Below, piece by piece: positions 10,660 to 62,026 of a DNA stretch of 64,000 nt. The position numbers and the translations under genes are program-made. Where the stretch lies: the NCBI GenBank assembly GCA_012295275.1, contig CM022671.1:14384001-14448000 (forward strand). The letters are read 5' to 3'. The notes beneath the pieces were generated by a model, which made no database searches, was not told the DNA's origin, and saw only the letters and a program-made list of their open reading frames with translations. Positions within the stretch are counted from its first letter, which is position 1. Each line of letters begins with the position of its first letter. This stretch comes from Chrysomallon squamiferum (Eukaryota; Animalia; Mollusca).

Positions 10660-11515
10660 TTTAAGTGAACTTATGACAACCGAAGGGGAAACAACTCTCA
10701 CAGGTTGTTTTTTGCCATATAATAACAATATAATTATTTTAAAAGTACTAATAATTGCATAATGAATATGTAACTAAAAGTGATGTCTGGAATGTAAAGG
10801 ACCGATTAGCAGTCAGATCCGTCGCTCAGATCAAGTTGCTTTAATAATTATCGAAACATTCCTGTCATGCTTTCAGATTTTAAACAGAGTTCTAAGACAG
10901 CCAGATTGAACAGAACGTTATTAAAAATTACGTCAGTAATCATATTTATTGTTCATTGTATCTGTGAAACAGAGAGGAGAGAACAAAGTAGGAAACCATT
11001 TCCAATATAAGCACTCTTAAATAATGTGATTTTTATTTTGATTCCCAGTTTCAGTTTTAATACCACTGACTTCGTGGAATTTTTCTGAAAACAAACAAAA
11101 ATAAATATAATAAAAATCTACGCATGTCTGTGTGTTTCGTGCATGAATGTGCATTCGCGTAACAAAAATCAGCCGTACCATAGGATTTTTTTTTTTTTTT
11201 TTTTTATATATATGTATATAAAAAATAAAAAAAAATAAAAAAACGAAAATAAAAATAAATAAATCAAACAAACAAACACCAGAAACAACAACAAAATTAT
11301 ATTAAAAAGCCAGAAATATCTGGAAAGGACGTATTGTTGTTTGGATTGAGTTGTAATAATAATAAAAAAGTAATACAGTACTAAAATAAAATGACTGAAA
11401 TGCATGTTTCTGTACATATGAATGTATTTTGTTTGCATATTTAAAAAAAAAAAAAAAAAACCCCAAAATGACCATATGAACCCTTTTTATTATGAGAATC
11501 ATTTTAAAGATGATT

Positions 11516-15600: not shown

Positions 15601-16552
15601 TGTTAATAATTTGTTGTTCCTCTGTTTCCTCCGAGTCCGAATGTGTGTGGTGGGATGTGTTGTCGTTTATCTTTTTTTGTTTCCTGTTACCTTTTTTTTC
15701 TGAGCCTAGGTCTTTTAATCATCAGTCACGGTGCTGTATGTTTTTGTGTGTTTAGTTGCCATTGTGTAGTGTAATTGTTTTGTTTTTCTTTAAAAAATAG
15801 ATCGATTTCAAATATATAGACAAGTCTATATTAATTATAAAAAGTCTAAAGCTATCATAACTCACTTTTAGATCGAGGTAAAGATAAAAGGTATATTGGT
15901 TATTTATGATACCGGAAAGTAAAAGACAAAAGAACAAACTGTAAATAAGAAAAAAGAAAAAAGAAAAGTAATTAAAGTAACAATAATACAAATACCTACA
16001 AATAATATAAATAAAAATCTAAGGCCTTTTAATTACTACAGCCCTTTTTATACTCCGGCCTAATTTCAAACTGATAAACACTGATTTAATTAAATCAAAT
16101 ATGTATTTAAAATAACCTGCGCTATATATTAGATTAATCTTATTAATCTTCTCGACGACGCAGTTATTACGTCATGGTTAGCAACGATTATTAATTAACA
16201 ACGTCAAAATGTATAGTTTCTATTATTAGAGTTTATAAAGTATTTCAGTAACACACACACACACACAACATATCACAGAGTTGGACTTCCGGTCAGTCGT
16301 GACAATTGTGGGAGAAGGTGATAGATTATCAACAGGATCTTTGGATGACCAAAGCAATGAAAGATGTGTTTTGTCATGGACATTTACTAGACAGCCAAAA
16401 TGATTATAGAGAAATATGTAAAAGAATTGCTCCTGTTGTGAAATGTAAATCACTTGGATGTTTGTATACTCATAAAAAATAAAACTAACAAAGACTTTAC
16501 GTTTTATGTGATTCTTTGTTTGTTGAAAACAATAATACAAAGAATAAACATA

Positions 16553-30312: not shown

Positions 30313-31720
30313 TTAAGGACAAGCATCATATTCTTTTATGAACAAGTCTCTGTCAGTGCATCTTGCTTTTTCAAACAGACAACTAGAAGAAAAAAAAATA
30401 ATGATAAAATTAGCAATTCAAAAATAAACTTAACAAAATCAAACTATATTATAAAATACAGCTATCTTATCTTCTTTCGTGTGTACATTCATTACTAAAT
30501 ATTAATTTTACATATATTATGTGAAAAATTAACAGTAACCCCCAAAATTATGTTTCTAAAATATGGTAAATCCATGATTTAGTTTAATAATATGTAATTA
30601 CTTCTTTTAATGTGTACCAGCAGTACACAGAGAGTATAGAGAAATAGATGATGTTAAAAATATAAATATTACAAATATTATTCACCCAAGTGAGATAATT
30701 CTTGATAATTTGTGAATTTTATGAAATATGGTTAAAAAAATATTTTCTTACAAGTTGTTGTAAGTCGTTCCATCCGAACCACAGACCAGCTCCACGTCGG
30801 TGCCACAGTGACTGTGGTGAAGATTTCTGCAGAAAAACTCGTATGTGGCTTCACTGCCATGACTCGCCCCCTGGTTTCCTGTGAAACACGTGCCGTTGTT
30901 AATGACGTGAAGGTCGCGATCTTGACAGTGGGCCTTAGAGAACATGCATCTGAAAAGACGTGCATGTAAACGATTTTATTATTTGTTTATTTTAGACATC
31001 ACCATCTTCATCGTCATCGTCCTCGTCATTTTTATTATTTATTTACAAATTATAATGTACTTAATGTCAAACTGTATTACAAAATATAGTTGTCTCTCTT
31101 TTCTCTCTATTGTAGACTCATTACTGAATTTTATCTTTACATATATCATACACAAACAATGTAACAATAATTAAAAATGATGAACACTTCGAGATATATA
31201 TTAAAAACATGCATACACACACACACACTCTCACATACAACACACAGACACAACAGGCTGAAGAAAAGATAAAGTACTCACCGACTGTCATATGTAATGT
31301 AGTTGCTGCCACAGACTGGGTGGTTTGCAAACAGATTACAGTCTAACCGAGCAACATACTTGCAAATAATTGTCAAATCTATTTCTGGTAAACCGAGGCA
31401 TACTGTAATATAATCAAACTCAAGCAATAAATCTCAAGCAATAAACTTTGATTCTTATCATCAGTTAAGGCCTGAATTTCTATTTCAGAGTATGAAATTC
31501 CAGATGTTTTACGAACAGGTTACTGTACCATTTATTCAAATCATGCAAATTAATCCCCTGCTTTTGATAAACTGTAGAAAACTTTTTTTTTTTTAAATAA
31601 ACATTAATTTACTGTATAAATGTAACTCCGATAATTATTAATTATTGTAAACGTAAATGTTATTAGGCTGACTGTTGTTGTACCTGTCAGAAGGTAACAT
31701 GAGAAAATTATCTTCAACAT
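30313..31720 (-). CDS. Secreted two-domain Kazal-like protein A; exons 31720-31684, 31402-31282, 30949-30752, 30382-30313
   Basis: Signal peptide MLKIIFSCYLLTVCLG, then CKYVARLDCNLFANHPVCGSNYITYDSRCMFSKAHC...GTC and CRNLHHSHCGTDVELVCGSDGTTYNNFCLFEKARC...C (six Cys each, VCGSDG.TY motif). Confidence 0.88.
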
Positions 31721-32591
31721 CACGGTGATTAAAACAGTGTGGCACACGCTATTTTCATAATCACTATCGTCTTTTAATATTGGCTGAAACATTAACAGCT
31801 GTTTGAAAATATAAGAAATATCTGACGGTATCTAGAAAGATAAGGCAGGATGATAATATATCTAGGGTTAATGATTGGAGTCAAATGTGAAAACGTGTCA
31901 AACTGCACGCTGTTACAGAAGGGAGGGGTTTTCTTAGATAAAGCACTTCCCACTCAACATGTTCTTTTGCAAACAGAACTTTTAACATAAATAATTTCAC
32001 CCCACCTCTCTTCTTTCTCTCTCTGTGTTGTTTCTTTCTTACATGTAAATTCAAAAATAATGTAATTATATAAACAATTTACAAAACAAAGAATGACATT
32101 GAAAGATAGCATAAATTTATTTCAGATCAAACAAATATATTTGATTCAGTGACGGCAAGATGATGGAAGTTCCAGATTCTGAACACACCTATAAAAAAAC
32201 GGAAATGAAGAGAAATTAAAATATATATATATATATATAATTTTAAAAATATTTTAATTTTTTTTTTTTTTTTTTTTAATTTGACTGCTTCAGTTCTATG
32301 TAATATTAGCCAGCTTTTGATTTTCCATATATAAGTCTCTTATATATAGATCTTTATTAGATATGTATATTAGGTATGCATATATGTATGCCTGTGTATG
32401 TGTGTCTGTTTGCACCTGTGTATCATATCAGTTCAAATCACCATAATTATAGGTATATATCGTATCATGTCACATCAAATCACATGATAATTATATGTAT
32501 GTGCTGTTGGTCTGGTCTATCTAAAACACTGTACATTTGTAATGTTCTGATATAAAATGTTACTACTTACTACTGTGCTTACTGTGTTTCG

Positions 32592-33891
32592 TTACATGCA
32601 GGCGTTGTATTCTTTAACGAAAAGGTCTCTGTTGTTACATCGAGCTTTTTCAAAATAACAGCTGTCGAAGAAAAAATATTTACATTAACTTGAACAACAA
32701 GCTCTACAAATGATTAATGGTTAAATTGAAATATACGTTGATCCTAACTTAATTATTATTTATATGATTTAATTAGATCCAGCTTTACAAGAACTGTTTT
32801 TCATTAAATATTGTAAATACATGGTATCTGAAAAGTCAGTATCTTTTTTGAAAAATAATTCGAATCACGAAAGATCGATTTAAGAAATGAAAAATATATC
32901 TGTTTCAAAGTATATACTGCAAAGAATTAGTGTTATACAAGTATTTCTAAAAACAAATTTGCACTAAAACACAGCATAGCAATTCATTTGAAAAAACAAA
33001 AACAAAAAAACCCCCCCCCACAACAAAAACAAAACAACACCAGTGAACAGTTTACTTAAATGTTTTGTTTATTTACTTATTTATTTACTTACAAGTTGTT
33101 ATAGGTTATTCCGTCAGATCCACATACCATCTCTATGTCGGTGCCGCAGTGTGTGTGGAGGAGATTTTTACAGAAGAACTCGTAGGTCGCCGAACTACCG
33201 TGACTGCCGTGTCCACCAGCTGCTTCACAAGATGTGTTGTACTTCAGATGTAAACTTCTGTCTTGACAGTGTGCTTTAGAAAACATGCAGCTGTACGAAT
33301 AATAATAATAACAATAACAACAACAACAACAGCTGCAGAATAATAACAATAACTAAAATAACAATAGTGAGAATTACAAAAAAACCCAACAACAACGACA
33401 TCAGCAATAATAATAACAATTACTACTACAATAATAATAAGAAGAGAACAAAAAACCCAACAACCCCCAAAAAAACCCACCCCAGTCAGAACAACAGCGA
33501 CAACAACGATGATGATAATAAGAAAACGAACAATAATAACAACAGAGACGATGATTATAAAAACAACAACAAAAGCGACGATTATGACAACAACAACAAC
33601 AATAATAATATGCCGTCATTCATTAATCTAATGGCGATAATGTTAAAAATGTTTAGCTATTTTGTGATTCATTTGTTTATGGTAAGTACTGTGTGGTGTA
33701 CTTACTGACTGTTGTAAGTTACGTTGTTGCTGCCGCACACTGGATGGTTTGCAAACAGGTTGCAGTCAAGAATGGAAACGTATTTGCATACAAGTGTCAA
33801 ATCTACTGCTGACTGTCCGAGACATACTAAATAATAAATAAATAAATAATCAAATAAAAATAATATATACATATATGTGCGTGTTATGCAG

Positions 33892-33982
<91 letters not shown>

Positions 33983-34142
33983 CACACACTCACACCCACC
34001 CACCCACCCACACATACACGTACAATCACACACACAAAATCAGAAAAAAAGAAAATTTAAAAAAATGATGCTAAAGACATCAACAAAGGTACATTGTACA
34101 TTTACCTGCAACAAGACATGCACAGACGACGAACTTCCACAT
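32592..34142 (-). CDS. Secreted two-domain Kazal-like protein B; exons 34142-34106, 33826-33706, 33290-33093, 32661-32592
   Basis: Paralogue of A with identical exon sizes and phases; MWKFVVCACLVAVCLG signal peptide; HPVCGSNNVTY and MVCGSDGITYNN. Confidence 0.88.
33895..33980. repeat. (CT)n microsatellite in Kazal B intron 1
   Basis: Direct reading. Confidence 0.95.
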
Positions 34143-34631
34143 TTTAACACTATAAATGATGACCAAATCCGAGGTAGTATTTGAGGAATGACAAAAATAA
34201 TGTGTACTGTGATCTTTATGCCATGAACAAAAGCTGATAACTTTGAAAAATAAGACTTTATATAGATAAGGAGAGGCTTAATTGCAGCTGTCTTTTTATG
34301 ACCATTCCCCAACTTCGCGTGTTCAGAATATGATATGGGTCTATGTCCAAATAAATACATTTGCGAATTTTTAATACCGACTGCGGCTGTCATTTGAATT
34401 AAGTAATTAAATTATGTTTTTTAAACTGAATCAAAACTTGTGATGATAATGGTGATGATGATGATGATGATGACAAGAACAACAACACTAACAGTTATGA
34501 TGATAATGATAATTTGTTGTTATAACAACATATCAACACCCTTTCATAAATATATATATATATTAATGTACTGGCCAAGAATATATCTTTTAATATACAT
34601 ATAGATGTATGATGCATATTTTATACTTCAG

Positions 34632-34686
34632 TATCTCTTAGCCTGAATGACGTCGACGCCTCAACCTTCTGCAAATATGTCTCAAT
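34632..34686 (+). pseudogene. Truncated duplicate of Kazal C exon 2
   Basis: cag|TATCTCTTAGCCTGAATGACGTCGACGCCTCAACCTTCTGCAAATATGTCTCAAT closely matches 35651-35705, then breaks off. Confidence 0.8.
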
Positions 34687-34982
34687 AAAATAATTTAAAA
34701 TCAACTAAAATATCGATTTTTATTAATACGATAATAGTAAATATTTCAAACTAAATCCAGCAACTTCTTGAGCCTAGGAAGTTGATACAATTAATGCAAC
34801 ATTAAAGCTCGGTTTCCATCTTATCTATAATTATACAAAATAACGTAGTGTATTATTAGAAAGTAGATATTCTTCAGCAGGAAATCGACATCTGCTAGTT
34901 CCCTGTATGTCGTGGAAAACAACTTTTGAACACGATCGTTCGATAAAACACTTCATCTGCCTGTGACTGGAAAGTGCAGAAG

Positions 34983-35314
34983 ATGTGGAAGTTCACCGCA
35001 TTCTGCTTTTTTGTGACAGGTATATCTTTCTTTAATAATAATATAACAAAAACTATTTAGGTGTTATTGTTACTTACGTTCTTTTCAGTATTTTTGGAAC
35101 ATATAAGGTAAAAATAGATGTGCCTATGAAACTGAGACAGTGAGTTACTGAAATATATATATATATATTTTATTATTATTATTATTTTTTATTTTTTATT
35201 ATTTTTTTTTTTCGGTTGAGCAAACGTAAGTTACATTTACACAACTGTTGTATTCATATCGGATTGAAGAGTCTAACTTTTGGGATACCTTTTCATAAAA
35301 GCAGTTCATTTTTA

Positions 35315-35345
<31 letters not shown>

Positions 35346-35446
35346 ATTCTATTGTATTCTATCTATTCTATTCTATTTATTTTATTTTATTTTCTTATTT
35401 TTTTTAAAATACTTTTTTATATCCCAAAACCGCAACGTCACACACA

Positions 35447-35492
<46 letters not shown>

Positions 35493-36077
35493 AAAGAAAT
35501 AAACAACAAAGAACTTTGTCTGAAATGTATATTTTAATAAGCACATACATTTGTATGTATGTATGTACATGTGTGTGTGTGGATGTTTCTGTGTGTGTGT
35601 ATGTGTGTGCGTGTAAATATCTATAAAACATTTTTTTTTTACTTTTCCAGTATCTCTTAGCCTGAGTGATGTCGATGTTTCAACCATCTGCAAATATGTC
35701 TCAATTATAGACTGCAACCTCTTTGCCAACCACCCGGTTTGTGGCAGCAACAACATAACTTACGATAACCAGTGAGTTCTGAATTAAATTTTAAATCTTC
35801 GGTGTGGAAAATAATCATCCTTTTTGCACTGTAAATAATAATGCGAATTAATGAATGAATGATTAACAGAAACTAACAAGCTATTGATTATTAAACGTAA
35901 ATATTGAAAATGAGAATATTATCATTTCTACACAGATGGATGACGAAAAAGGTGATGAACTCGATTTATTTACTCTTTATAATAAAATTATTTCATCTTC
36001 GAAATTATTTATCTTTTCAAGCCATTTAACATTAACCGTGAAACACAGTTTTAATGAAAAACATTATTATTTTTTTA

Positions 36078-36116
<39 letters not shown>

Positions 36117-36683
36117 TTCACAGCTGCTTGTTTTCCAAAGCGCATTGTCAAGACCACGATCTACACATAACATTCAATGGTACATGTGACAGTCAAAACC
36201 ATGGAGGCGAAGTAACTCATGGCGGAAGTGCAACCTATGAATTTTTCTGTAGAAACCTTGTCCACACACACTGTGGTACTGACATGCAATTAGTATGCGG
36301 GTCAGATGACGTCACTTACGATAATTTGTAAGTAATTTTTGTTAGAGTTTAGACATGATAATTAATAGGAACATTCATTTTTTATTTTTTATTTTTTTTA
36401 AATGATTTGAAAACCTGTATTACTTCGACTATCTTAATGTATGACAAACTTTTCTCACTTCTCATCATATTATTTATTATTCAAGATTTCTACTCTGTAC
36501 TGTTAATCATGTTAATTAACTTCCAACGTATAACATTCAGTTAAGCTATATTTCTATAAATGGAAATCAGTTCATATACAGACGTACTTTGATAGCCTTT
36601 CTCATTCTTTCAGCTGCTACTTTGAGAAAGCTCGTTGTCTTAACCGAGATCTGTTTATAAAAGAATACAGCGCCTGCATTTAA
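34983..36683 (+). CDS. Secreted two-domain Kazal-like protein C, head-to-head with B; exons 34983-35019, 35651-35771, 36124-36327, 36614-36683
   Basis: MWKFTAFCFFVTVSLS signal peptide; DCNLFANHPVCGSNNITYDN, HTHCGTDMQLVCGSDDVTYDN and CYFEKARCLNRDLFIKEYSAC. Confidence 0.88.
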
Positions 36684-37269: not shown

Positions 37270-39007
37270 TGAACTAAAAGCAGTTTAATATTTTAACGTT
37301 GTAGTGTTTTTATCTTCATCATCATCATCATCATGATAATCATTATCATTGTTATAAAAAAATATTTTAAATGGTATTATAAACGTGTGTGTTGGAGTGG
37401 GTTTGGAATCGTCCGTTTACTTAGAGAAAAATCGTAATCCCTGCATTTGTAGACACAATTCAATATAGTATTATAACTGATATTTTTACTGTAACAGTCT
37501 TTGGCAATATCCAAAACGCACATTTCGTATCCGAAAACACAGAAATTAGAATTATACACAGAGAAATTAAAATTTAACTGTCACATAATATATTTTGTTT
37601 TTATAACACGGACAACATGCTCGATCACTGTTAATAATTAACCCTGAGGCCCATGTTTTGTCCGATGCCTTATTAGCGGTTTTATCATCTCGTTCAAAAC
37701 GAGACTGGTTAAAGTCCGGTGGATCGGCTACTGGGCGATGCTGGAGTAATCAGGATGAGAAGATTGCAGCGGTCTGCGGAGCCCGAGCAGCTGCGGCTTC
37801 AATCAGTTCACACAAAATACTTGATAAGGAAACTTATTTATTTACACTGTGAACTCGGTCAGTCATTTATAAAAATATGTATATATATATATATAGATAA
37901 TGTTGATATTTGTATTTGTGTATGAATGAACATCTTAACCTTCAGAAGTTTTATCTACTGTGAAAATCCAACAAAAAGGACAAAAAAAAAAAAATAAATA
38001 AAAAATAAAAAATAAAAATAAAAATAAAAAAATAGTAATAATGAAAAAAAGGAAAATAAATAAATAAAAATATATATAAATACCAACAAAAAACTATATA
38101 TTGACATACAAGCGAAAAGATATAAAGATAAAGATAACAAGTTATTTTTAAATTCTATTTAATCTCTTCCAAAGGGTACCCTTTAGGCATCAAAATAATA
38201 AAAAAAAAAAAAAAAAAAAAATAGAAAAAACAAAAATAAAAAATAAAAATAGAAACCAAACAACAACAAACCTCCCAAAAAAAATCTTTGTTAGAGTAAC
38301 CAAACATAAATGTTATTATTTATTTAAAGTGTAAAATTATTTTTTTTCTAAAATCTTTGTTGGATTTCTCGTATTATTTCACATTAATATTATTACAGAC
38401 CTATGAATAAATTACATTAAATGTTCAACTATATTTAAAAAAGAAGCAAAACAGTTCTGTGCTGGAAATGACCTCATGAAAAAGGATGGTAATGGACTCT
38501 ACATATTTTTTTTTATAAATATTTGTCTCATTTCTCGCCGTAGACTTTTACTAAAAATAATTGTACAGTCATATGTAATAAATATACAAAGTATACACTG
38601 AAGGCGCGTATCTTCTCATAAACTATCTGAAAACGTCACATTACCAATAGTAGATTTCTTATCTCTTACAACTACAAGCGCTAACGATAAACATCCTTAA
38701 ATTACATTAATACTACCTTAACACTGAAAACATACCGGTGTTTGTTTGTTTTTTTAATTTTAAAGTGCACTGATAAAGAACCTGTTTGATATTCCCTAAC
38801 TTCAGCACGTTTACATAACCAGATTTATTTTATTGACATTGTCGACTCATGGTTAAAATAAATAGTTTCTTATCTAAATCATGCTGATTCTGAATACTTG
38901 GAGAAAAACAAAAAAAAAAAAAAAAAAAAAAAAATTCTCCAACGTTCGACCGAAACTGTACATGCTTGTCGGGAAATGTAAATATTTGATTCAAATTTTT
39001 ATAAACC

Positions 39008-39661
39008 ATGGCAGTGTTCAGACTGTGTATTTTGTCCTTGGTTCTGTACTGCACTTTTATGTGTAACAAAACAATCGGAAAACGTCGGAAATTATCATGG
39101 ATGAGCGATGCACCAGAACCGGAATGTAACAACGATCATTTTCAATCGTGTGTTAATTACGAAGGCAACATCACTGGCTGGATAAAATGGTTCAAAGAAA
39201 GAAAGTTATCCGTTCCTACTCTGCTTCTGGGTTTGCATGTGTTTCCTCTTCTGGCGCAAGGGAATTGTTCCCAGGATGCACAACGTTTCCTGTGCTCAAA
39301 ATATTTCCCCATGTGTTCAGAGGGAAAACCGCAAAGGAAAATCGGACCTTGTAAAAGTTTGTGTGATGACGTCAGAAGCAAATGCGAATCAAAAGTCAAC
39401 AAAGCAGGTTTCAAATGGCCCCAAATTCTCAGATGTGACGAATTAGCAATTTTCGAAACAAAAGATACGTGTATTGGAAAAGCAAATGATGACGACCGTG
39501 ACGCTGTTAACAGAATGAAACCAACCTCGGAGACGAGTCGCGAAGTTAACACTGGCAAACAAAGGAGGAAGTCGAAGAATCTGTCGCGTTTTCAACAACG
39601 CTTCAAATCAGCTCTCGGACAGATTGTTGCAGTCTTGTCAAGTCTTCGTGACGACTTATAA
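39008..39661 (+). CDS. Secreted Frizzled cysteine-rich-domain (CRD/FZ)-only protein, single coding exon
   Basis: Hydrophobic N-terminus; 10 Cys with FZ spacing, including CSQDAQRFLCSKYFPMC, PCKSLCDDVRSKC and GFKWPQILRCD. No TM or netrin domain. A branch point plus acceptor (CCCTAACTTCAG, ~38795-38806) suggests a 5'UTR intron. Confidence 0.85.
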   Translation: MAVFRLCILSLVLYCTFMCNKTIGKRRKLSWMSDAPEPECNNDHFQSCVNYEGNITGWIKWFKERKLSVPTLLLGLHVFPLLAQGNCSQDAQRFLCSKYFPMCSEGKPQRKIGPCKSLCDDVRSKCESKVNKAGFKWPQILRCDELAIFETKDTCIGKANDDDRDAVNRMKPTSETSREVNTGKQRRKSKNLSRFQQRFKSALGQIVAVLSSLRDDL

Positions 39662-40477: not shown

Positions 40478-41605
40478 TTACAGAAATTTACATTTAAATC
40501 CACAATACATAGCTGCAGTAATGCATAACATAAAAATGGAAGATAGATGAACGGAGGTTGAAGCAGACGACACAATTTTTGGACAGTCAAATTTAATCAT
40601 GTGATCGATGTCTAAGGGATGTTTCATCCATTCCACCAACTGATGCATCGTCACGATGTACACGTCATCCAGACTCAGCAAAGAGTACAAAAACCTTTCC
40701 ATGGCCCGGTAGTGATAATCAGTATTTAGCCAAACCGCTTTCATATTTACAACAAATGGAAATTTTTTGTCTCGATAATAGTTATAAAAGTTATCCCAAA
40801 TTAACTGAAAAGCTTGGTTCTCGTTCTGCGGGAGGTTGATACACCCGTCGATGTAAATGCAAGGATACTGATGTTTGTAATCAAAGTACGAGACGGGAGG
40901 AACTTCCCACAGTGAATAGTTAGTATCGGGGCAGCGGTTTCGTTCACAGTGGTAAGTCCAGGCGTAATCCAGAGTACCTGGAGTCGAGAACGGATCGGTA
41001 GGTTTTCTTCTGATGACGTAAAGACTAGAATCGTATTCGAAACCTTCTTGCTGGAGAATTCTAAACTGATCATTTCCTACCGGAAGTAGATGTGGAGTTC
41101 TCCATCCACGGATTTCTGACATCGGTATGTTTGCATTTTTAGAGAGTTGTTTTCTGTTTTCCACAATTTCATATTCTATTTCTTTCGTCGTTGCATTTTT
41201 CCAGTAAATATACATCGGGTTCCCAGAATGGCTATATCCAGCAATTTCAAATCCACTTCGGTAAAGATCGTTTACCATCGTAAAATTCGTATAACGGCTT
41301 TGAACGAATAAAGTCGCACTTATTGGACATCCATTTGCATTAATTCGTTCTGCGCTGAAGAAATGTTTGTAATATCCAAAAACGTCAATGTTAACTCCGC
41401 CGCTGAAGGCAAAAACTACCATCTGTGGAGACTTAGAACGCGAAAACTGTCCAGGAGCTTTTGTATTGTTGAGACAAAAACATTCTGGGAGAAAGCATGT
41501 TTCACCTTGAATACACTGACTTTGAGATGTCATACTTCTTATATTATACATAATTAAAATGATTATCACTCTCCATATATTCATCATAGTTATTTTGAAC
41601 TGCAT
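40478..41605 (-). CDS. Chitin deacetylase-like (CE4/NodB) protein, single coding exon, catalytic motifs degenerate, hydrophobic C-terminal tail
   Basis: CFLPECFC, PQMVVFAF, NANGCPISATLFV, GFEIA, EIRGWRTPHL, FEYDSS, PGTLDY, LWEVP and DDVYIVTMHQLVEWMKHP are animal CDA hallmarks. The exact start Met is uncertain. Confidence 0.9.
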   Translation of the reverse strand: MQFKITMMNIWRVIIILIMYNIRSMTSQSQCIQGETCFLPECFCLNNTKAPGQFSRSKSPQMVVFAFSGGVNIDVFGYYKHFFSAERINANGCPISATLFVQSRYTNFTMVNDLYRSGFEIAGYSHSGNPMYIYWKNATTKEIEYEIVENRKQLSKNANIPMSEIRGWRTPHLLPVGNDQFRILQQEGFEYDSSLYVIRRKPTDPFSTPGTLDYAWTYHCERNRCPDTNYSLWEVPPVSYFDYKHQYPCIYIDGCINLPQNENQAFQLIWDNFYNYYRDKKFPFVVNMKAVWLNTDYHYRAMERFLYSLLSLDDVYIVTMHQLVEWMKHPLDIDHMIKFDCPKIVSSASTSVHLSSIFMLCITAAMYCGFKCKFL

Positions 41606-42088
41606 TTTTTGCCTTGACAAAAAAAACCAAACTTTAAAGGTGATTAGCTCTATCTTACAAAATACATAATTCGTAACATCTTAAAAACACTTACTAGTCC
41701 TCAGACTTCGGAACACAGACTAGTTATACTTGTTTTTATAAAACTCGGAAACGAAATGCTATGATTTAATTTGAGAAGAACACGTTACGCAATATATCAC
41801 TGTGCCTGAGGCATAAAGAAACGCACCCTGAAAAAAGATTTATACGATTAACAGCTATCAAACTGTTGTTGATGTCTGCAGGCAAGCTATTTTTGACGTC
41901 TTTGTTTGTCTTAATGTGAATAAAAGATAGGGAGCCCCGGGTTAGATCCGTGTCTTGTTTGATTTTAACTTGATTACAGCGCAGGGTTAAATGAGTTCGG
42001 AGCCTGTAGCATGTGTTATATAGTGGCGTAGAATTATTATTATTATTTTTTTTTTAGACATATATATATAGAGAGAGAGAGAGATAGA

Positions 42089-44333: not shown

Positions 44334-46746
44334 ATGGTTCGATCTATTTTAATTGTTGTTGTCACTCTGTTTCTAGGTAAGTATGAAACGAATTATAATG
44401 TTGACTACTAAGTATGTAACGAAATATTAATTTTGAAATAATTATAATAATAATAAAAATACAATAATATCGTTTGTTCATCAGAATGAAAGAAATTTAA
44501 AGGAAATGAAAGAAATATATTTAAAAAAAAAATTTAAACATTTTAAAAATTATCAGTGGGCATATTCATTCATTCATTCATTCATTCAGTTATGTGTGTA
44601 CAAAGATGTATTGCTTTCGCTGCTGTAGAAATGCAGATATAAAACCCGAATAGTACTGTGAAAGTATTTCTTCTTGTTTCTAGCCAGAACCAGCGCCGAG
44701 CACCGGAAACTTCCAGCAGACGTCTGCCTTTTCTTTCAGTCCTCAGACTGCGCCACATTCAGACCGAGAATCATATGCGCTTCAAATGGAATCAACTATC
44801 CCAATGAGTTAGTATGACCATGCACATTTGTATGAATTAATAAGTTTTGGTTGACAACAACGAAAAAGATATACATATATATATATATATATATTTTGAT
44901 CTAGTTAATATAATTATATTTAATTAATTATGACATTTGTTGGAGCTTCAGAGATACTGCTAATCAAATTTACAAGTATCTTTCATTATATTTGTAGAAT
45001 AATGATTTTTAAAATTTCATAATTAATATTAAAGGTTTTATCATCATAATTTCAGATGCTATTTCTCAAAAGCCCACTGCAATGATACTTCAATACACAT
45101 GATATATGACGGAAAGGAGTGCCTACCGACTACAACAACATCTGATCATTTGTTATCAACAGTTCCAATATCAAGTCTTGATTGCAGTGTTATTAACAGG
45201 TTCAATTGCAGCTACTATAAGCCGAAACTTATCTGTGCGTCAAATGGACAGACATATAAAACTGAGTAAGTTAAACTGAAGACAGGCATTCAGCTTCTTC
45301 TTCAGGTCAAACACAGCAACTAATCAGTTAATAAAACCGAAAAACATGTCTGAAATCTCACACTCGCCTAGATTTAAGAATCAATTAATACTTAAGTATT
45401 ACGATGACGTTGAGTAATAACGGTGCTATATATATTACTATCACAAATACCGCTACTACTATTACTACTACTACAACTAAAACAAATACTATTATTTTAT
45501 TACTACTTTTTTCAGATGCGATTTTGCTAAAAATCGGTGCATAGATCCATCGCTTACGATAGTATCTACTGATCATGAGTGCCCATTGACGACACAGACA
45601 ACAGCCACAACCACAAACACGCAAACCAATGTAACATCGAGTACAACCGTCATCACTTCTCAGATATATACAAGAACCACAACACCTACACCAAGCACGA
45701 CAGCTGTAAACAAAACAGCAGCTAATCCCAATTCTTCGTTTGTTCTTCTCTGCCGTCTGCTTCACGCGGCTGAATGCTCGGATAACCTAAATGTTGTGTG
45801 CACAACAAACAACAATTATAGAAACACGTAAGTAATTAAACCACTATGGGAAGATGATGTATGTTGCTAGGTAGTAAATACATTAATAAACTGAATAAAA
45901 ACATATCAATAAAGTATATTGTTATCTTTTTTTTTATGTGAGTTATTTCAATATAATTTTATAATGTAATGTGATTTCACATTTGAATGTTTTACTGCTG
46001 TTTTTTTTGTTGTTGTTGTTGTGTCTTTTATTATTATTATTGTTGTTGTTGTTGTTGCTGTTTTTGTTGTTGTTGTTCGTTTTCATTTTCTGGACTCTGA
46101 AATAACAACATTTTATTTCAGATGTGAATATCAAAAAGCTAAATGTTTAAATCCCGAAATTCAGCATTTACATAATGGTTACTGTGGAGTGGGCGAAGGT
46201 ATTCCAAATAACCCGTCAGCCTATGAAATCGCGTGCCAAGATGTACTGAACACCACTTGCCCTAGCAACGGACCAGTTGTCTGTGACAACCACGGACAAA
46301 CCTACGCAAACCTGTGAGTAATTAAATACAATTAACGGAATGTGGCGTTTGTTTAAGATGTGACATTATCAGTTACTGACTAAATTTATTTATTTAGTTT
46401 TTTAAACTTAAATTCATGAACTCCAGTCATTGATATTTGAACTCTTTTAACATTTATTTTCTGGTAGTTTTGTTGTTGTTGTTGTTTTTCTTTGAAGCAC
46501 CAGAACATTATATAAACTAATGAAATTTGGTATCATAAGAAACGGATAAAACGGTAAAATATTCAGTTAATTTAATCGTATTACCATTTTACTGTAATGC
46601 TAGGCAAAACCAAAACAGTTCCAACTGTCAAATTTAAGGGATAAATTTTTTAATATTTCTTTCTTTTTTTCTACTATTGCAGTTGTAAATTTCGGAAAAC
46701 TAAATGTCTGCTGCATGGAATCGAATTAGCTGCCTGTTCTACGTAA
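44334..46746 (+). CDS. Secreted four-domain Kazal-like protein D with Thr-rich mucin-like linker; exons 44334-44376, 44684-44807, 45056-45265, 45516-45827, 46122-46313, 46683-46746
   Basis: Signal peptide MVRSILIVVVTLFLA; ICASNGINYPNECYFSKAHC, ICASNGQTYKTECDFAKNRC, VVCTTNNNYRNTCEYQKAKC and VVCDNHGQTYANLCKFRKTKC. Same intron phase as A-C. Confidence 0.85.
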
Positions 46747-51200: not shown

Positions 51201-54200
51201 AAAAAGATGCAACAAATCACCAAAGAAAACTGGGTGAGGAGATGGCGCGTAGCTTAAAGAAAATCATTGAACCATATTTCCTACGTCGAACAAAAGATGA
51301 AGTTCAAGAAAGGAATCAGAACCGAAATGAAAATGATTTACAAGAAACTGATCAGGCAAAGTAAGTACTGCTCCTGATATTGAGAGAGCAGTGAATATCT
51401 TTGACAGATTTCATTTATTTATTTATCAGTGTTAAAAATATAAAACCAATCATTTTTTTTTTTACACATTTTCGCATGGTTTAATTTTTTAACTGGTTTA
51501 AGGCATTGAATCATTGAATAAAATATTACTTGCTGATAAAAGTAACCTGAACTAACTCTAATACTTTACTTCTGTATACAAAGAATATTGTCATATGTTT
51601 AGTCTTGATCTATATTTCACAGAAAACAAAAAACAAATTCATTTCATTAAACAAATTTATTAAATTTTTCTCTTGTACTAAGAATAGTGTCATGTGTTTA
51701 GTTTATTATTTGATCTATATTTCTCAGAAAACAAAAAAAACTAAACAAATTCATTACATTAATATAATTTATATAAAAAAATTGAGTTACAAGACAGTAA
51801 GAGTAATTTTTTGTTGTTTCTTTTTTAAAGAATTCCTTCAGTATTTCCATATATTTTTAAAATTAAAATTTTTTTTTTTATTTATTTTATTTTTTTTTAA
51901 TACTGTTTTCTAGAATGCCCTCATTGACAAGGAAAAATGATTTGGTGATTTGGCTGTTTTTATCTGCAGCTCAACAGAAAATATATGAAGACTTCCTTGC
52001 ATTGGACAGTGTTAAAGAGGTTAATGAATATAATTTGTATGAGAAGTGTGATAAACGCTGTTTGAAAAAACATTATCAATGAAAAGTATGGTTAAAAATA
52101 TGTATAAAAGGAAGGAGAAAAATATGTATAAAAGGAAGGAGCCTGATGTGATCATATGGTAACTGATATTATGGAATCTGTTAAGAGGTTTTTGCACTTG
52201 TAGTCATATGAATAATTATATGTATTAAAAAATATTTAGCTCTGATTAAAAATATCTTTTTTCTTCTTAAAAATAATTTTTATACACATTATATATTGAA
52301 ATATAAATTTATTGAAATAAATATTATCATAACTCCTTTTTCCAAACTAGACTGTTTTGAAATTAAACTTTTCATGATGTTTTTCAAGTTAAGTCCTTTT
52401 GTATTTTTAATTTAGAATTTAAAAAAAGATTAATAATTAAAATTATGTAGTGGTTTTCCTTTTAGTTGCTGATGACAACGAGATCTCCACTAGTAGCATT
52501 AACAGTGCTGAAGAAAATTTGTGATCATCCAAGATTGTTGTCAAAGAAAGCTGTTGCCCAGCTAGGTCTGGATGGAGCTGAGGGGTATGTAAAAATAATT
52601 ACACACTATTAGACAGACAGAAGTAATAAGTGTTCAGATATAAACAAATATTAAAACAGCATTTATCTTGGTTTGTTGCAAGAAAACAACAATAACAATA
52701 ATCACGTGTAGGTTTAGTGATGTGGAACACAACAGAAAATTATTCATAAAACTTGCTTATTGCTTCATGTTATAAGCAGAGAACAGAAATGAAAATATAA
52801 AAAATAGTAATAATAATTTAAACTAACAAAACCTCAACAAACTATAAAATAATTATGAATTACTAAATTATTAATAAAATGAAATTTAAGGTGCAAACAT
52901 TTTTTTTTCTTTTCTTATAATGAAGTGGGATGAGTGTAATTTTTGGTCAATTGGTTTTATATATATATATATATATGTAAACAGCATGTTATTTAATGAT
53001 GTTTCAGACTGGATGATTCTATGGTAGACAATCCTACTGCTTTGGAGAGTGCAGTGATGAACATTCACAATATAGAAAATGAAGTTCTCATCAACGAGTC
53101 TGGAAAACTTCAAGTTCTGATTCAGTTGCTGGACAACTTGAAGAGTGAGGGTCATCGAAGCCTTGTCTTCTCTCAGTCTCGCAAGATGTTAGACATTATT
53201 GAGAAAATCATCAGTACCAGGGTACATATAATTATACATAAAAGTAGATTTTATAAGTTTTTTTATTCAGCTTAAAAATTACACCACTGATTTTGAATCA
53301 GGGTCAGATGGTGTATAGTGTATTCTTCAGTATTTCTTTTAGAATGTTAATTCCTTTATTTAAATTTTGGGAAACCTAATTTTAAAAAATTGTAAAATAA
53401 TATTGGTAAATTCTACAAATATATACAATATTTAAGAAAAATATCTATATATTGCCAAATTTGAAATGCTTTCTGAAATATTCCATTTATGTTCAAGAGA
53501 TGCAGAAACCAAATTAACTAATATTAAGTTTTGCAAACTTGAAAATAAACATCTCTGCTCTAAACTGTTTTTGAACTGTTTCAGGGTCACAGAGTGATGA
53601 GGCTTGACGGAACAGTGAAACTGATCTGTGACAGAGACGAACGGATTAGAAAGTTCCAGAACGATGAATCATATTCTGTGTTTTTACTTACAACACAGGT
53701 TAATACACACTGAAAAAGTACATTTTAACATCGGAATTTATATAACAAAGGAGAAAAATATTTTAAAAATTAGTTTGGAAATTTAAAGAAAATTAATACA
53801 TAGAATAGTGAACAGAACATTTTTTAAACTTTCATTGCATTAGAATACTTATTGTGTGTTTTTAACGTGAGTCAGTGATGTGATTTCATTTCAGGTTGGT
53901 GGTGTTGGTTTGACACTTACAGCTGCAGATCGAGTCATAATTTGTAAGTTTCTTTTTTACTTTTTAAATATGAAGTTTTACATCTAAAGTTCTTTTGTTT
54001 AAAATAAAATATATTATATTGATACTAGATACAACATTACTATTATATGGTTTTTATTAAAATTAAAAAAACACAACTATTTTGTAACATTAGATGATCC
54101 AAGCTGGAATCCAGCAACTGATGCTCAGGCTGTGGACCGAGTGTTCAGAATAGGACAGAACAAAAACATTGTCATATACCGGCTGATCACATGTGGCTCT

Positions 54201-57119
54201 GTGGAGGAAAAAATCTACCGCAGACAGATTTTCAAAGATTCTATTACCCGACAAACAACAGGAGCCACGAAAAATCCTTACAGGTGAGTGGAAGCTATGA
54301 GATCTCAAAATGTTATAATTTCTGACAAGTAATATAAAAACTGTTTTCCTTGTTTCTAAAGAAAATAATTTTGGACCTGTTTTCTTGTATGTGGATTAGA
54401 ACAGTGATATGTCAATGACTTTACTACAACTGCTGGAGTTCCATTTCATTTCCCCAGCATTTGCAAGTGCTAATTTAATTGTTTCACATTAGCACATCAC
54501 TAATACTAGGAAGCTTCAATGGAATAATTTTCTTCAAAAATCTGTATATATATTGTGCCCTCCAAATAATAATGCATTTTTAGGTTATTTATGATTCCAT
54601 GAGCTTTCTTTTTATATTTGTATATTTCACAGTAACATATAATAACTAATTAAACAAAAAAGAAACCATAAGAAATAAAAAAAAAAAAAAAAATATGAAG
54701 TAGAAGTGTTAATTAAAATAAGTAAATAAATAAGTTTTTAGATAGTTTTGTTTTGCTAACACGATTTTAACCTGTTTTGTGCCTAGCAGCAACAAGTGCT
54801 AGTATTAATTCAAACCAGTACATTGTTGATGCTGGGAACAATTAAGGATACCTTCTGTTTCTTTCACTTCAAATCCTTTGTTTTTCTGTCAGCACTGATT
54901 GTTGTGGAATAATGAATATCTGAAATTGTGAAGGAGAAACCAACACTTGTCAAGTACCAGTGTTGTTTCATATTGAACATACTGTTTATTGTTTGTTTTC
55001 TCAAAGCAGATCTGTGGATATCAAGTCCAGATAGATCCTAGCAACAGCAAGTGCTTGTGTTAATTTCCAACATGCACACTGGTGTTTCCAGGAGTCTTCA
55101 GGATTCTTTCATTTCTTTCACGTTGAACGAGAAATAGTTATATTGTGGCCTAGCAACAGTGAGTGCTTTCGTTAGTGACATACAGTCTTACTAGGAATCT
55201 TCATGATTCTTTTACTTCCTTCCTGTCTCAAGAGATAGTTATATCGTATCCTAGCAACAGCAAGTGCTTGTGTTAATTTCCAACATGCACACTGTTGTTA
55301 CCAGGAACCACAGAACCGTGTATAGAACAAAATGTTCAGAGTGCTATTTTTTGTAGTGAATGTAAGTAAAAAATCCCTAGCAACAGCAAGTGCTTGTGTT
55401 AATTTCCAACATGCACACTGTTGTTACCAGGAACCACAGAACCTTGTATAGAACAAAATGTCCAGAGTGCTATTTTTTGTTGTGAATGTAAGTAAAAAAT
55501 CCCTAGCAACAGCAAGTGCTTGTGTTAATTTCCAACATGCACACAGTTGTTACCAGGAACCACAAAACTTTGTATTGAGCAAAATGACCAGTATGCTATT
55601 TTTTGTTATTTTTTGCTAAGAAGTGAATGAAGTACAAATCCCTAGCAACAGCAAGTGCTACTGAAACATTCACTAAGTAACACTGTGGTGTTGCAGGGTC
55701 CTGTATTTCATATTTTTGCTTCTGTCTATTTTATATAATTATTTTTGATGAATTCCTAATCAGCATATTCTTAGAGATAGCAAAAAAAGGTGTGTGCATG
55801 CGTTCGTGTGTGTGTGTTTGTGTGTGTTTAAAACTAATTTGTTTTAACCTTTCTCCTTTTCAAATAAATTCTTAACATTTGCATTCCTTAGGTTATATGA
55901 TCACATAAGTACAGTGACAGTTAGATCAGTAATGAAGTTAATATAAGCATTTATAAATGTGTAGCATTTACAGCACCCAGTCTATTTGCACAGCTCCTGA
56001 AGGGGATACTATCATACATACTGAGTAGCACAAAATATGCAGATTCAGAACTAAAATTGTTTCTCTCAATATCTTGATCACAAATTTCCAGGTCCCTAGC
56101 ATCTGTAAGTGCTAGTAGCTGTATTGAAACCATCACAAACAAATGCTAGAAAACTGGAATTCTTTTTCAATGTCTTAAAATTCATCTTTATTTTAATACA
56201 GCATAATGTATTGAACTGACAAAGCTAATTACTTGTCTATTTTTTTTTTTTTTTTTCCAGTTACTAATTACAGCCTAAAGTCTCCAAATATACAGTCATT
56301 ACTAAAATAGTATAAATATCCTTTAAATGATTTTTCAAATAATGTGATACATTATGGTATAATGAGAATTTTGTAAATTTGTCTTGAAAATAAGAATCAA
56401 TTCTTAATCTTTGAAGGTGCTGATTAACAAACTGATTATACCTGGCATCAAATTGGTGCAGGAATTGCTTTTTTTTTCACCTGCAACAAAATGATACAGG
56501 TATGATTAGCAAATTCTTGAATTATAAATTACCACATATAATCATTAGTGTTTAAAGACTTTATTATTTGTAATTGGTTAGTTTTTAATTATCAGTATTC
56601 ACTGTTAATTTTAAATTTTTAACATATATAAATGTTATTTATTTGTAATATTGTTTTCATACTTACAAGAACCACTAGTTCATCAGTATTACAAATAACT
56701 TCAAAAATCCATGTAAAAAAAATCTAGTTAAACATTTTCTAGTATTTGTTTTGTTAATCTTTTTGTTTTCTTCTTTTAGTTCTTAAAAATAGAGTTGTAT
56801 ACTTGTCAGATTATCTGGCAGGTGTCAGATTTGGGGACATCAGGGGACAGAACTGCCCCACCTGGGTCCGGCATTTACAAGTGCTAATGACTCATCTTTG
56901 ATTAGCACATTGTAAATGTAGACACAGGGAGGGTGTCAAGGTGTATACACAGTCTATATAAACATACATACATCTATATCTATATAAACACTATAATTTT
57001 AATAAAGTGTTAAATAAGAAGTAATATTTTTACTTGTTAGTTATTTTAAAATAATTATGAAAAAAAAACCCTCAATATAATCATAACCCAATATTAAACT
57101 TGTATATTATTTTATTAAA

Positions 57120-57161
<42 letters not shown>

Positions 57162-57781
57162 AAATAATAATTATTGTTCTTTTTGAAAAAATATATTAAT
57201 AAAATTACAATATATTATTTTAATTCCAGACACTGACAGATGTTATTGTATTTTCAGTACAGTCATTATGAGTCTTGTCAACTGGCATCAAATTGGTGCA
57301 GATCAGTTATCTACCTTCACACTCAAATTGGTGTCAGTGACAAAACAGATTAAATCTTTTAACTCCTGCAACTCCTTGAATACCTAAATACATTCCTCAG
57401 TACACAGATCATCCCAGACACACCAGTCAGTGAGAGTGTGTGAATTAAATACTCAATACATCAATCCATCCATCCAACAATACACATGTGAACAGGTTGT
57501 GTGTACCAGTGACATCACTGTTGTGTATTCCTTAATCAGTTTACTTCATTTGTCATGATGGTTCTAATACACAAGAGTAAATAATGTTACTTATCAGAAG
57601 AAACTCACCCCTGGTTTTTTGAAGAAATCAAGAGTAAATTATTATATAACAGAAACAATAAATACCTAATATGTTGTATTGTTTCTGCTTTTGTACTCTG
57701 GCATGTAATTGGTGCAGAACTGATTTGACCAGCAACAACTAGATACCAGAACAAACACAGCATTAGTATAGTTCTATATGT

Positions 57782-57820
<39 letters not shown>

Positions 57821-60452
57821 TTTATCAATTTGTATTCTTCTAATGTAATTACACTAGAAGAAGTGTGTGTGGATAATTACCTACTATGTTTAACTGCCAT
57901 TATCCTAATACTTTTTGTCTAATACTTATTTGATACAAAACACAAGCAATTTATTTTTAAAAAAAATTAATATTCTCTAGGGAACAGGAAATGAGTATTA
58001 ATTTAAACTAGGCTTAGGAATGTGGGGTCTGCAGGCTAATGCAAAGTGTTAATTGGTCCTTTGATGTGGGAGCCAGTTGTTTCCAACTGGCCTTTGTTAC
58101 AAATGCTTGTGATTCACACATACCTTGTATTTGACTGTATATATCTGTATTTAGTAAAATGCGTGTATGTGTGGATCACAAGCTGTTCTAACATTTTATG
58201 TTTTTATTAACTGATTTTGTTAACAGCTATTTGTAATTTATAATATCAAGATGGAGATGTTAGAAATAAAATAGTGGATGTTTCACACATTTAGTACGAC
58301 CAATTCTTAATTTAAAGAAAATATATAAATAAATAAAATATAATTGTTCAGCTGAATTTCTGATATGATTTAGAATATCTAACATTCAGGAATCTAATTC
58401 ATATGCAGAATAATAATAACAATAATAATAATAATAATAATAACAGACTCTAAGAAGCAATTAAAAATATTTCAGCAGAATGTAAATTAAAACTTACCTA
58501 TCTGAATGTAGACATCATTGTTGTTGTTGGGGTTTTTTTATATAGAAGAGGACATTTATCTTATATAAATGTTCAGAATATAAAACAGCAAATTACTCAG
58601 TGTTATATCTTGGTGATGTCCAACTGATCTGAATTCTCACAGGTACCAGAATGAAGATTAACCATCACAGTGGCCCCTAACATACAACAAAGCAACCTGC
58701 CACTCTTTAACTCCATCCGTAATGATTGGTTCTTAAATTTGTTCTTTGCCATTTGATTGGCTAGATTTGATGCAGGTCCACAATGAACCACCCACCTCCA
58801 GTTTGATTGGTTCCTTGTGTTTATGTAGCTAAGTGTCTGCTCTGTGTATTACTGTGATTTACCTGAGTCCTAATAGGGTATTTACTTAGCTTGTCTGTAA
58901 TCACCCGCCTGCTTGACATCTTGTATTAATTAGTCATCCGTGTATTTTCAGCAATTTGTGTTTTGTTCAGCATTTGTCATTTCACAGAAGCTGACAATAG
59001 CCAGTGTTGTGGCATTTGGCACTTCTTAAGATCATTTTGGCTACTTGCTAAATAAATGTTTTGCTTTTAAATTTTGGTCTCAAAAACAAATTGAGTAGTT
59101 TTAATATTAAAAATGGCACAAAAGTAATGTGTTCTTAATAAATTTGTTTTTTAAAAAAGAATATATTACTGTACTTCCATTTTTTTAAATGAAAAATATA
59201 TATTTAATTAAGTGACTTAAATAATTTATTTTTCAAAATGAAAACATTTTGTATTCTAATTAGTTTTTTAGTTTTTACCTGGGATGCTTGTTATCCAGTG
59301 TCTGTTTTGCTGTACATTTTTACAAAAATAACTAAAAGTATCAAACAATATATGTTAATTTTTAGACATCACTGATGCTGGGAGTTTTGCAGGAAATAAA
59401 TAAAGGCAGACCAGTTATAATTTTAAATATAAGAAATATTTTAAAGGATAATTTTAATCGTAATGAAGACTTACTTAAGGTTTTTAAATTATTATTTTAG
59501 GTAACAGATTATGATATTTGCAAAAGTATTCCATCTGAAAATATGGTCTGTTATAAAAGTATGGGTATGTATGTAATGTACATACACTGATGGAAAAATC
59601 CTGTTTATTTCTAAATTATTATTTTATTTAATTCTCAGAGATATAAAATAGTGTGTGTGGATAATGCTTGAAGGCTGAGTAAGTTGGAGAATGTATTGTT
59701 GTACTCAGAAACAAAAGAACCCCTGTCATTTGGAGGTAGACAGAAATGTATTAAAACTGCTTGTCACTTTAAAAACAAAATGTTGTTCATTGTTTTTCTT
59801 TCTTATTATATCTCTCTTACAATGAAAAAAAAAAAAAAAATCCCTTTATTTGTATGTATTTTTTTTCTTCTGTGTAACTGATCTTTTAGTTGAATGATTA
59901 TTTTTATATTTATATTTTACATTATTTTGAAGGTGCAATGACCTCTCTTTCAACACAGACTTTATTTTTCTATGCAACTATAGATAGGTGTTACCTAGGC
60001 ATTTTCATATTTATCTTTGGATTTAAAAGATTATATAAACTGGTAGCCATTTTCCATATAACACCTGTAGCAGACTTTAAAATGATCCAAGTCTTTCACA
60101 GAATTCAAAGTTCAGAATAACATATTAGTAATTGAGATCAATTTGTAAAAAATATATAAACAGAACATTCTAAGATTACTGCAGTTCATGAGAAATAAAT
60201 TCCCATTTACATTGTAATCTTCAATGAAATATTAATTTATTCTCCTTGTGGCCATTTGTAATTAGATTTTATTGTCTCTTTTTATACTTTTAATTGATGA
60301 AAATATTAAAAATTTATAAACTATTAAACTATGTGTTAATTTACTGTTTAATCAAAAAATAAGTATTCCTAATGCTTAGATATTAAAACCAGCTGTTTTG
60401 ATTAGTTATATCAATTTATAGCTACAGCATAAATATTTATCTTATTATTATA

Positions 60453-60500
<48 letters not shown>

Positions 60501-62026
60501 ATCCACTGAAGAATTTATTTAATACTGATGAAAAAAAAATTGTTTCACCTGTTATTTGTGTCATTTTAATTATTAAAGAGACATATGTTTCCACATACAT
60601 GTTATTATACTCATGTTAAAGCAGCTAATCTAAGTAGGGGAAAATAAATGAATAACCTTTAACAGATGGTCAAGACTATGTAAATAACAGTTTTCTGGAT
60701 TTCTTTTTTCTTGCCATGATGAATTAGTACAGATTTAGCTGTGCGATATTCAACATATTTGTAGTTTGTTATTTCTTTGTTTATTATGCTGTATCAATTA
60801 TTCCCTGCTATTAATTGTAGAAATATAATTTTAATAAGACACTGAAATGTACAAAATTCAATCCTAAGTGCATGTAACTTTTGTTTTAAAATGTTTTTCA
60901 GTTCTGTGTGTTTTATTTTCTTTCCTCCATTCACTCTAATCAATTTTAATAGAATTCATACATATTTTTTTTTAATTTTAAAGTAAAACTAATTAATGTA
61001 TCATCTGAGTTTCTCAATAGATATTTTTTTGCATGACAAGTTGTTCTTCAAGCTTATTAATTTTTTTAATTATTCTTTTTGTTTTTAATTAAAAATTACA
61101 GATACTTCAGCAAATCAGAACTGCATGAGTTATTTATTTTGGACAACCCAAGATTTTCAACAACACAGGAACAGTTGCAGCAAATGCATTGCAATCAGCG
61201 CAAATCTGATGTTAGTCTAGATGATCACATAGCATTTCTACATTCTCTGGGTGAGTTGTCCTGATAATTAGTTGTGAATTACCTGCATACCTTCATTAAA
61301 TATTAATTCTGCTGATACCTACCCCAAAGCCTCACCCACCCACACACAATCACACACACAACACACGTACAAATATACAGACACACAGACAAACAAAACA
61401 CATAAACATACACCCATCCACAGACACAGGTGAAATTATATATTTCTTTTTATGTGAATATGTTTTTATTGTAATATATATATATATATATATATATATT
61501 TTCATATTTCTTTCTTTTTTTTCTTTTTTTAAATTAGACTATCTTTATTTCCTGTTACAATTTAAGAAAGAAGTGGGGTTTTTTGTATTTTTTAATTATT
61601 ATTGTCTTTCATCTGTTCTCCAGGTATCCTGTTGTATTTCTAGTGATTAATAAGTAATTGAAAATTTGCATTGCCTCTACTTTGCTAATTGTCGTTGTTC
61701 AGGTCCAGACCAATCAAGGCTAAGCTTAATGGGTGTAATACAATGGCTGCTTGACATCAAAGACTGCTGTGCTAATTACACCAGAGTATTGTTTTATTGG
61801 GTCAAGGTGACACCTTGTAAACAAAACAATAACACTGGTGTTTATTAAAGACATGAATTCTGCTAGATAATTTAAATTTACAAATGAATTGGAAGTGAAA
61901 ACCACCTTTGTTTGTAATTGTGTTAGTAGTGCTATTTATTTTTTTATATATCTCACTAAAGCTACCATTTATGAGAAAATATTTATTTATTTATTTATTT
62001 GGGTTCTTTAATACTTAAAAAAAAAA

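Follow-up and report, generated by a model that had tools for sequence, protein, structure and literature searches.

ERCC6L intron and its hairpins

The 64-kb window analyzed here (64,000 nucleotides of Chrysomallon squamiferum contig CM022671.1) is AT-rich gastropod sequence and carries part of the gene ERCC6L (PICH) on its plus strand. When the ERCC6L protein of Gigantopelta aegis is mapped onto the window, the largest gap among the exons is an intron of 6,818 nt, with GT at 54284 and AG at 61101. The upstream introns are ~110-550 nt long and the next one after it ~2.1 kb. The original prediction for this DNA, made from its letters alone, had described the intron as 6.8 kb long against upstream introns under ~0.6 kb, and the measurements agree. 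The host is identified as ERCC6L by the exon preceding the intron, which is 98% identical to its G. aegis counterpart.

On the opposite strand this intron contains 12 intact hairpins, which are very probably real microRNA genes. About as firmly, they can be placed in the same family as 'cluster20' of the Pacific oyster, which consists of m0314, m0315, and m0317 (scaffold370/NW_011935983.1 near 642.7-643.7 kb, host gene CGI_10025557; Xu et al. 2014, PMC4138081). The features of the locus are given below, with the hairpins in their 5' to 3' order on the minus strand; 3p is the predicted 3' arm, CNNC positions are counted from the end of the 22-nt 3p arm, and organism B is a related species.

54093..54283, plus strand: ERCC6L (PICH) coding exon, helicase C-terminal region, upstream of the cluster intron (G. 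aegis protein mapping; splice donor)
54284..61101, plus strand: ERCC6L intron, 6,818 nt, with the cluster on the opposite strand (splice sites, exon chain)
57695..57750, minus strand: pre-miRNA 1 (5'-most), predicted 3p UGCACCAAUUACAUGCCAGAGU; seed GCACCAA; retained in organism B
57279..57338, minus strand: pre-miRNA 2, 3p UGCACCAAUUUGAUGCCAGUUG; 3 mismatches to oyster m0315_3p over 23 nt; short organism B piece
56865..56922, minus strand: pre-miRNA 3, 3p UAGCACUUGUAAAUGCCGGACC; 3p arm without listed change in organism B
56439..56500, minus strand: pre-miRNA 4, 3p UGCACCAAUUUGAUGCCAGGUA, m0315 class; CNNC at +17
56093..56150, minus strand: pre-miRNA 5, 3p UAGCACUUACAGAUGCUAGGGA; 2 mismatches each to oyster m0316_3p and m0317_3p
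55639..55697, minus strand: pre-miRNA 6, 3p UAGCACUUGCUGUUGCUAGGGA; 3 mismatches to m0317_3p; CNNC at +16
55248..55557 (55500-55557, 55374-55431, 55248-55305), minus strand: pre-miRNAs 7-9, a recent 126-bp tandem triplication; 3p beginning AAGCACUUGCUGUUGCUAGG
55137..55212, minus strand: decayed copy, seed altered to AGCACUC; fold no better than shuffles
55035..55092, minus strand: pre-miRNA 10, 3p AAGCACUUGCUGUUGCUAGGAU; CNNC at +18
54937..54990, minus strand: possible remnant, missed by the family model; no significant fold
54780..54835, minus strand: pre-miRNA 11, 3p UAGCACUUGUUGCUGCUAGGCA; retained in organism B
54451..54510, minus strand: pre-miRNA 12 (3'-most), 3p UAGCACUUGCAAAUGCUGGGGA; 3 mismatches each to m0316_3p and m0317_3p

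Another long hairpin, separate and unrelated, lies in the same intron at 58105-58183. Its best fold, at -41.5 kcal/mol (z -7.5), is that of the plus (sense) strand; a sense intronic microRNA and a foldback remnant are both possible.

Copy number, folding and processing motifs

A covariance model of the family, built from 10 snail copies and used to search the 64-kb window, gives 13 minus-strand matches at 54441-57767. Twelve of them score 37-71 bits, and the decayed copy at 55137-55212 scores 24.6 bits. No match is found outside the ERCC6L intron below E 0.07 in this window. While the 12 intact copies fold better than shuffled sequences on the minus strand, as the original prediction expected (z -2.5 to -7.1; 200 shuffles), those near 55150 (z -0.3) and 54940 (z -0.1) show no such advantage, and the one near 54940 is not recognized by the model either. 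The original prediction counted ~13 hairpins and a degenerate copy near 54940; the count is now 12 well-folding copies plus the decayed one at 55137-55212, and the copy near 54940 is supported by neither model nor fold. The arm sequences quoted in it are correct.

The hairpin of a canonical animal microRNA has at least 16 paired bases between its arms and a loop of 8-40 nt. Other marks are reads from both arms with 2-nt overhangs, uniform 5' ends, and a guide arm that is the best conserved part. All 12 intact copies have canonical pairing and loop size: their loops measure 12-19 nt, and 17-21 of the 22 bases of the 3p arm are paired. In an alignment of 10 paralogous copies 85.9% of cells pair and two-sided changes are found at 9 of 17 pairs, in a test that leans in the structure's favor because the structure came from these same 10 sequences. 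Both values lie above shuffled and slid controls; among 500 shuffles none reaches the percentage paired and seven reach the two-sided count.

A CNNC motif starting 16-18 nt past the 3p arm, claimed earlier for at least five copies, is found in six of 12 (background 6.7%), or in four of nine when recent duplicates are counted once (p = 0.002). Pre-miRNA 12 has CNNC at +16 and also the previously described apical UGUG, located at its 5p/loop junction. This is the one copy in which an apical UGU(G) at the junction is clear; the 5p arm ends in UGU in four further copies. A basal UG is not consistent across the 12 hairpins.

Judged by folding energy, seven of the 12 copies favor the minus strand, one (57276) favors neither strand, and four (54778, 55639, 56438, and 56866) favor the plus strand. 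The minus-strand bias described before therefore does not hold at 55639 and 56438. The hairpins are assigned to the minus strand because the oyster homologues fix the strand, which folding energy alone does not.

Predicted seeds

Oyster reads begin with (U/A)AGCACUU or UGCACCAAU, from which two seed classes are predicted for the snail. AGCACUU is the predicted seed of nine copies, and the three UGCACCAAU copies bear a second one, GCACCAA. The single seed AGCACU(U) proposed originally is therefore one of two predicted classes.

Conservation in a related species

The comparison comprises 11 runs, nine of organism A (seven samples) and two of organism B (one sample). Organism B shows 31 differences from the ERCC6L exon in 200 nt, with 20 of 46 third codon positions changed among the rows listed. 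For the intron, compared at 80% identity, there are 18 records. Among the eight pieces listed, hairpins account for the three longest (54778-54840, 56813-56940, and 57672-57760), and the other five are 37-44 nt long and AT-rich or microsatellite. Four more copies (55639, 56093, 56439, and 57279) are represented by loose ends and joints, and there is a hint of the copy at 55035 in the depth. At least seven of the 12 hairpins are thus retained in organism B, partly in order. Adjacent hairpins lie in the same order on one organism B contig at two joints, 56117 to 56438 and 56940 to 57276, each resting on 25-26 letters. Pre-miRNA 12 has no match in organism B at 80% identity and the triplet is likewise uncovered; there is no cover at 55084-55539.

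In organism B no change is found at 37 3p-arm positions, while 12 of 63 positions elsewhere nearby are changed (Fisher p = 0.003), a comparison drawn from three similarity-chosen pieces and from positions at least 30 nt from piece ends. The paralogue alignment agrees that the guide (3p) arm is more conserved than the star arm and loop, as had been described from the window.

Homologous hairpins in the Pacific oyster

The oyster precursors m0314 to m0317 all lie within 1 kb, antisense to CGI_10025557, and both of their arms are represented by reads (PMC4138081). m0316 sits between the cluster20 members and was set aside by the authors for failing the 2-nt overhang test. m0316_3p and m0317_3p match arms of the window with two mismatches and m0315_3p with three, while none of 100 shuffles gives a match; these 3p arms cover three of the four oyster matures and both seed classes. 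Like the snail cluster, the oyster cluster is antisense inside a host gene, and its 3p arm is conserved and dominant (3p:5p reads 3,245:421 for m0314 and 29,937:367 for m0315; PMC4138081). The succession of m0315 and m0316 in the oyster has its counterpart in the snail, where 56439 is followed by 56093. The two clusters differ in size: the oyster has four hairpins in ~1 kb and the snail 12-13 in 3.3 kb. The oyster homologues thus have reads and 3p dominance, as expected of the polycistronic minus-strand cluster with a 3p guide that was first proposed for the snail.

Given these near-identical published matures, the family is very probably older than the split of gastropods and bivalves. This split is Cambrian. 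The original description of the snail hairpins as 'lineage-specific' is not supported in view of cluster20, nor is 'novel', in that near-identical oyster matures have been public since 2014, as unnamed oyster-specific precursors. Cluster20 was described by its authors as oyster-specific, with members of different origins (PMC4138081), both of which are contradicted by the snail data. What appears to be new here is that the family is common to gastropods and bivalves and that it has expanded to 12-13 copies in the snail. Thus microRNAs published as oyster-specific have near-identical gastropod relatives.

The host gene is probably the same in both animals. Look-ups for CGI_10025557 gave no gene name, and no Pacific oyster ERCC6L record was found. 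CGI_10025557 is expressed in blastula, hemocytes (RPKM 10.3), and female gonad (RPKM 14.3) (PMC4138081), a pattern that is compatible with ERCC6L without being diagnostic of it. Because this gene is on in hemocytes and female gonad while the microRNAs are absent there, a separate antisense promoter is suggested.

Another pair of oyster hairpins, 'cluster19' (m0146 and m0148; scaffold150:1133587-1134055), is antisense in host gene CGI_10028653. Its blastula-to-D-larva timing is like that of cluster20, and its 3p arms start with (U/C)AGCAUCA (PMC4138081). It is possibly a sister cluster within the same superfamily.

Comparison with named microRNA families

Rfam gives no match at gathering scores in the 64-kb window; four weak matches at E up to 10 include no plausible family. 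In another report the hairpin of m0315 is labelled miR-96-5p and its 5p arm is given as the mature (PMC11067994). The 3' arm of that hairpin nearly equals three arms of the window, and its 5p arm bears the seed of other rows labelled miR-96. Membership in MIR-96 is rejected because no snail 5p arm keeps the miR-96 seed and the oyster 5p arm accounts for 367 of 30,306 reads (~1%). MIR-29 also has a 3p-arm guide starting with (U/A)AGCAC, and descent of the snail and oyster family from MIR-29 is possible. Membership is not indicated, since no Rfam mir-29 match exists at E up to 10 and the MIR-29 seed differs from the snail seed at positions 7-8. Assignment to a family 'MIR-12096' was considered and rejected for want of support.

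The family table of MirGeneDB 3.0, which gives names and no sequences, includes MIR-2722 (Mollusca), MIR-1984 (Conchifera), and MIR-12588 and MIR-1988 (Gastropoda), as well as seven oyster-only NOVEL families numbered 2-8 (PMC11701709). With some of the node names searched, there are near even odds that MirGeneDB already names the snail-oyster family. Twelve fragments of the snail arms have no match in the main texts of the literature searched, and in the literature listings no embryonic microRNA cluster is described as conserved in molluscs. A metagenome scan with the GCACCAA-class arm gives 67 loci. Neither a match to an ERCC6L exon nor a convincing hairpin of the family accompanies any of them, so that they are treated as chance matches; the viral contigs searched give no matches.

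In the embryo cluster of Capitella teleta on CAPTEscaffold_488 (around 125.8-132.5 kb), the hairpins are tandem, embryo-expressed, and 3p-dominant, and most matures start with UAAGCAC(C/U) (30 of 95 places in the supplement); its authors compare the cluster to miR-430 (Khanal et al. 2022, PMC8915122). By eye, its AGCAC core is common with the snail seeds, while its seed is shifted by one base (AAGCAC..). Such a shift is a recognized mode of microRNA change (PMC12257675). Homology of the two clusters is a lead only, since the one Capitella mature tested directly (19 nt) has no window match within three mismatches.

Likely role in the embryo

On balance it is likely that the 12 hairpins form an expanded polycistron as old as the gastropod-bivalve ancestor. 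Zygotic genome activation is the predicted time of its onset, and maternal and early mRNAs would be repressed by it in the manner of miR-430. At genome activation Pol II would start at a separate antisense promoter and transcribe from above 57750 to below 54450. Each hairpin would then be processed by Microprocessor and Dicer, with its 3p arm loading into Argonaute. The AGCACUU guides (nine copies) and GCACCAA guides (three) would then act on the 3'UTR sites AAGUGCU and UUGGUGC, respectively, at a dose that tandem duplication may have raised.

The timing comes from the oyster. m0315_3p stands at 84 RPM in the egg, climbs to 2,330 in blastula and 2,712 in trochophore, drops to 959 in D-larva and 6 in umbo larva, and is at 0-0.5 RPM in eight adult organs; the three accepted precursors rise 20- to 50-fold from egg to blastula (PMC4138081). 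This restriction to embryo and larva supports the early-embryo activity that had been thought likely, and by analogy the cluster is quite probably embryo-restricted in this snail too. Clearance of maternal mRNA as its main job is possible but somewhat doubtful.

miR-430 in zebrafish is timed to genome activation and represses early mRNAs through its own seed (PMC7283388). The likeness to miR-430 and miR-302/367 lies in an amplified, shared-seed cluster turned on in the blastula. It extends to gene context in that miR-302/367 reportedly lies antisense in an intron of LARP7, a housekeeping gene. The seed of the miR-430/302 family differs from AGCACUU and GCACCAA and is absent from the guide strand of the snail copies, which makes the snail cluster an analogue and not a member. 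Base for base, the main predicted seed is the reverse complement of the seed of miR-430/302, which is probably a coincidence.

Several points weigh against this interpretation. While the hairpins and conserved 3p arms are observed in the snail and processing and timing in the oyster homologues, the processing and timing of the snail cluster are taken from the oyster, and its mRNA targets are predicted from seeds only. Three of the four oyster precursors were accepted by their authors, m0316 being the exception; m0314_3p has no window match within three mismatches, though it shares the seed; and in one report the mature given for the m0315 hairpin is its 5p arm. Folding energies are divided between the strands, the organism B joints are short and the conservation test small, and pre-miRNA 12 and the triplet lack organism B cover. 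The oyster cluster makes up ~0.4% of blastula reads (our own sum, with m0316 scaled from read counts), an abundance far below that of miR-430, and it stays high through trochophore and D-larva. Because of this modest abundance and persistence, a burst in the style of miR-430 fits less well.

For the same reason the main rival is a role of the same cluster in larval patterning or timing, from blastula to veliger, where it would tune zygotic transcripts during cell-cycle slowing and the trochophore program. Expression that peaks in blastula and trochophore, lasts at modest level to D-larva, and then ends speaks for this role, and the oyster authors tie young microRNAs to the trochophore-to-veliger transition (PMC4138081). 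The 20- to 50-fold jump from egg to blastula is instead as expected of a genome-activation product, and persistence could be explained by stability alone. Mature microRNAs are stable. We consider a mainly larval role possible but unlikely.

A wider proposal than the miR-430-like polycistron would make all of these one ancient AGCAC-core embryonic family, the lophotrochozoan counterpart of miR-430. It would have been antisense in ERCC6L since the gastropod-bivalve ancestor, be seed-shift kin of the Capitella cluster, have been amplified independently in each lineage, and clear maternal mRNAs; it would have been overlooked by being silent in adults and filed as species-specific. Embryonic microRNA clusters (miR-430, miR-302, and MIR-36) are usually viewed as separate lineage inventions. 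We regard this proposal as speculative and, like a larval role, unlikely.

It is also rather improbable that local duplication produced several of the snail copies as neutral by-products, in which case the family would be real and its expansion mean little. The triplet units are 95% alike at a 126-bp period, one copy has decayed, and organism B has no cover over 55084-55539, all of which suit neutral gain. Seed and fold are nevertheless intact in all three triplet copies, and seven or eight other copies are common to organism B.

That the hairpins are cut from sense ERCC6L pre-mRNA, or that the antisense transcript acts mainly on ERCC6L in cis, is very improbable: the better plus-strand fold of four of the 12 copies is outweighed by the oyster precursors, which are read opposite their host gene and whose arm sequence is that of the window's minus strand, and by conservation centered on the 3p arm, as targeting in trans predicts. 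A miniature inverted-repeat transposable element (MITE) or satellite-like foldback repeat lacking RNA function, suggested by the repeated hairpins and the 126-bp tandem unit, is already largely refuted and barely credible, since no dispersed copy occurs beyond the ERCC6L intron in the 64 kb, the arms are conserved asymmetrically, the oyster homologues have been sequenced, and the hairpins lack the pile-up of contigs that is seen at a neighboring microsatellite (depth being no copy number).

With the seeds of the favored miR-430-like polycistron now named, maternal-mRNA clearance in spiralian embryos becomes testable with the existing oyster time courses. The locus offers a good entry to the control of early development by microRNAs in spiralians.

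Other features of the window

A single-exon chitin deacetylase-like gene is found at 40478-41680 on the minus strand, 75% identical to that of G. aegis and ~50% to those of abalone and limpets. Adjoining it is, by eye, a single-exon gene for a Frizzled-like cysteine-rich protein (39005-39661, plus strand). The remaining features are also recognized by eye. Several Kazal/follistatin-like cysteine-rich repeat exons exist on both strands at 30700-36400 and 45400-46400. Two neighboring and similar small membrane-protein genes lie on the minus strand at 4950-5270 and 9140-10780, which look TMEM97/EXPERA-like. At 14279-15720 (minus strand) a 332-aa open frame with cysteine-histidine knuckles resembles ORF1 of a non-LTR retrotransposon.

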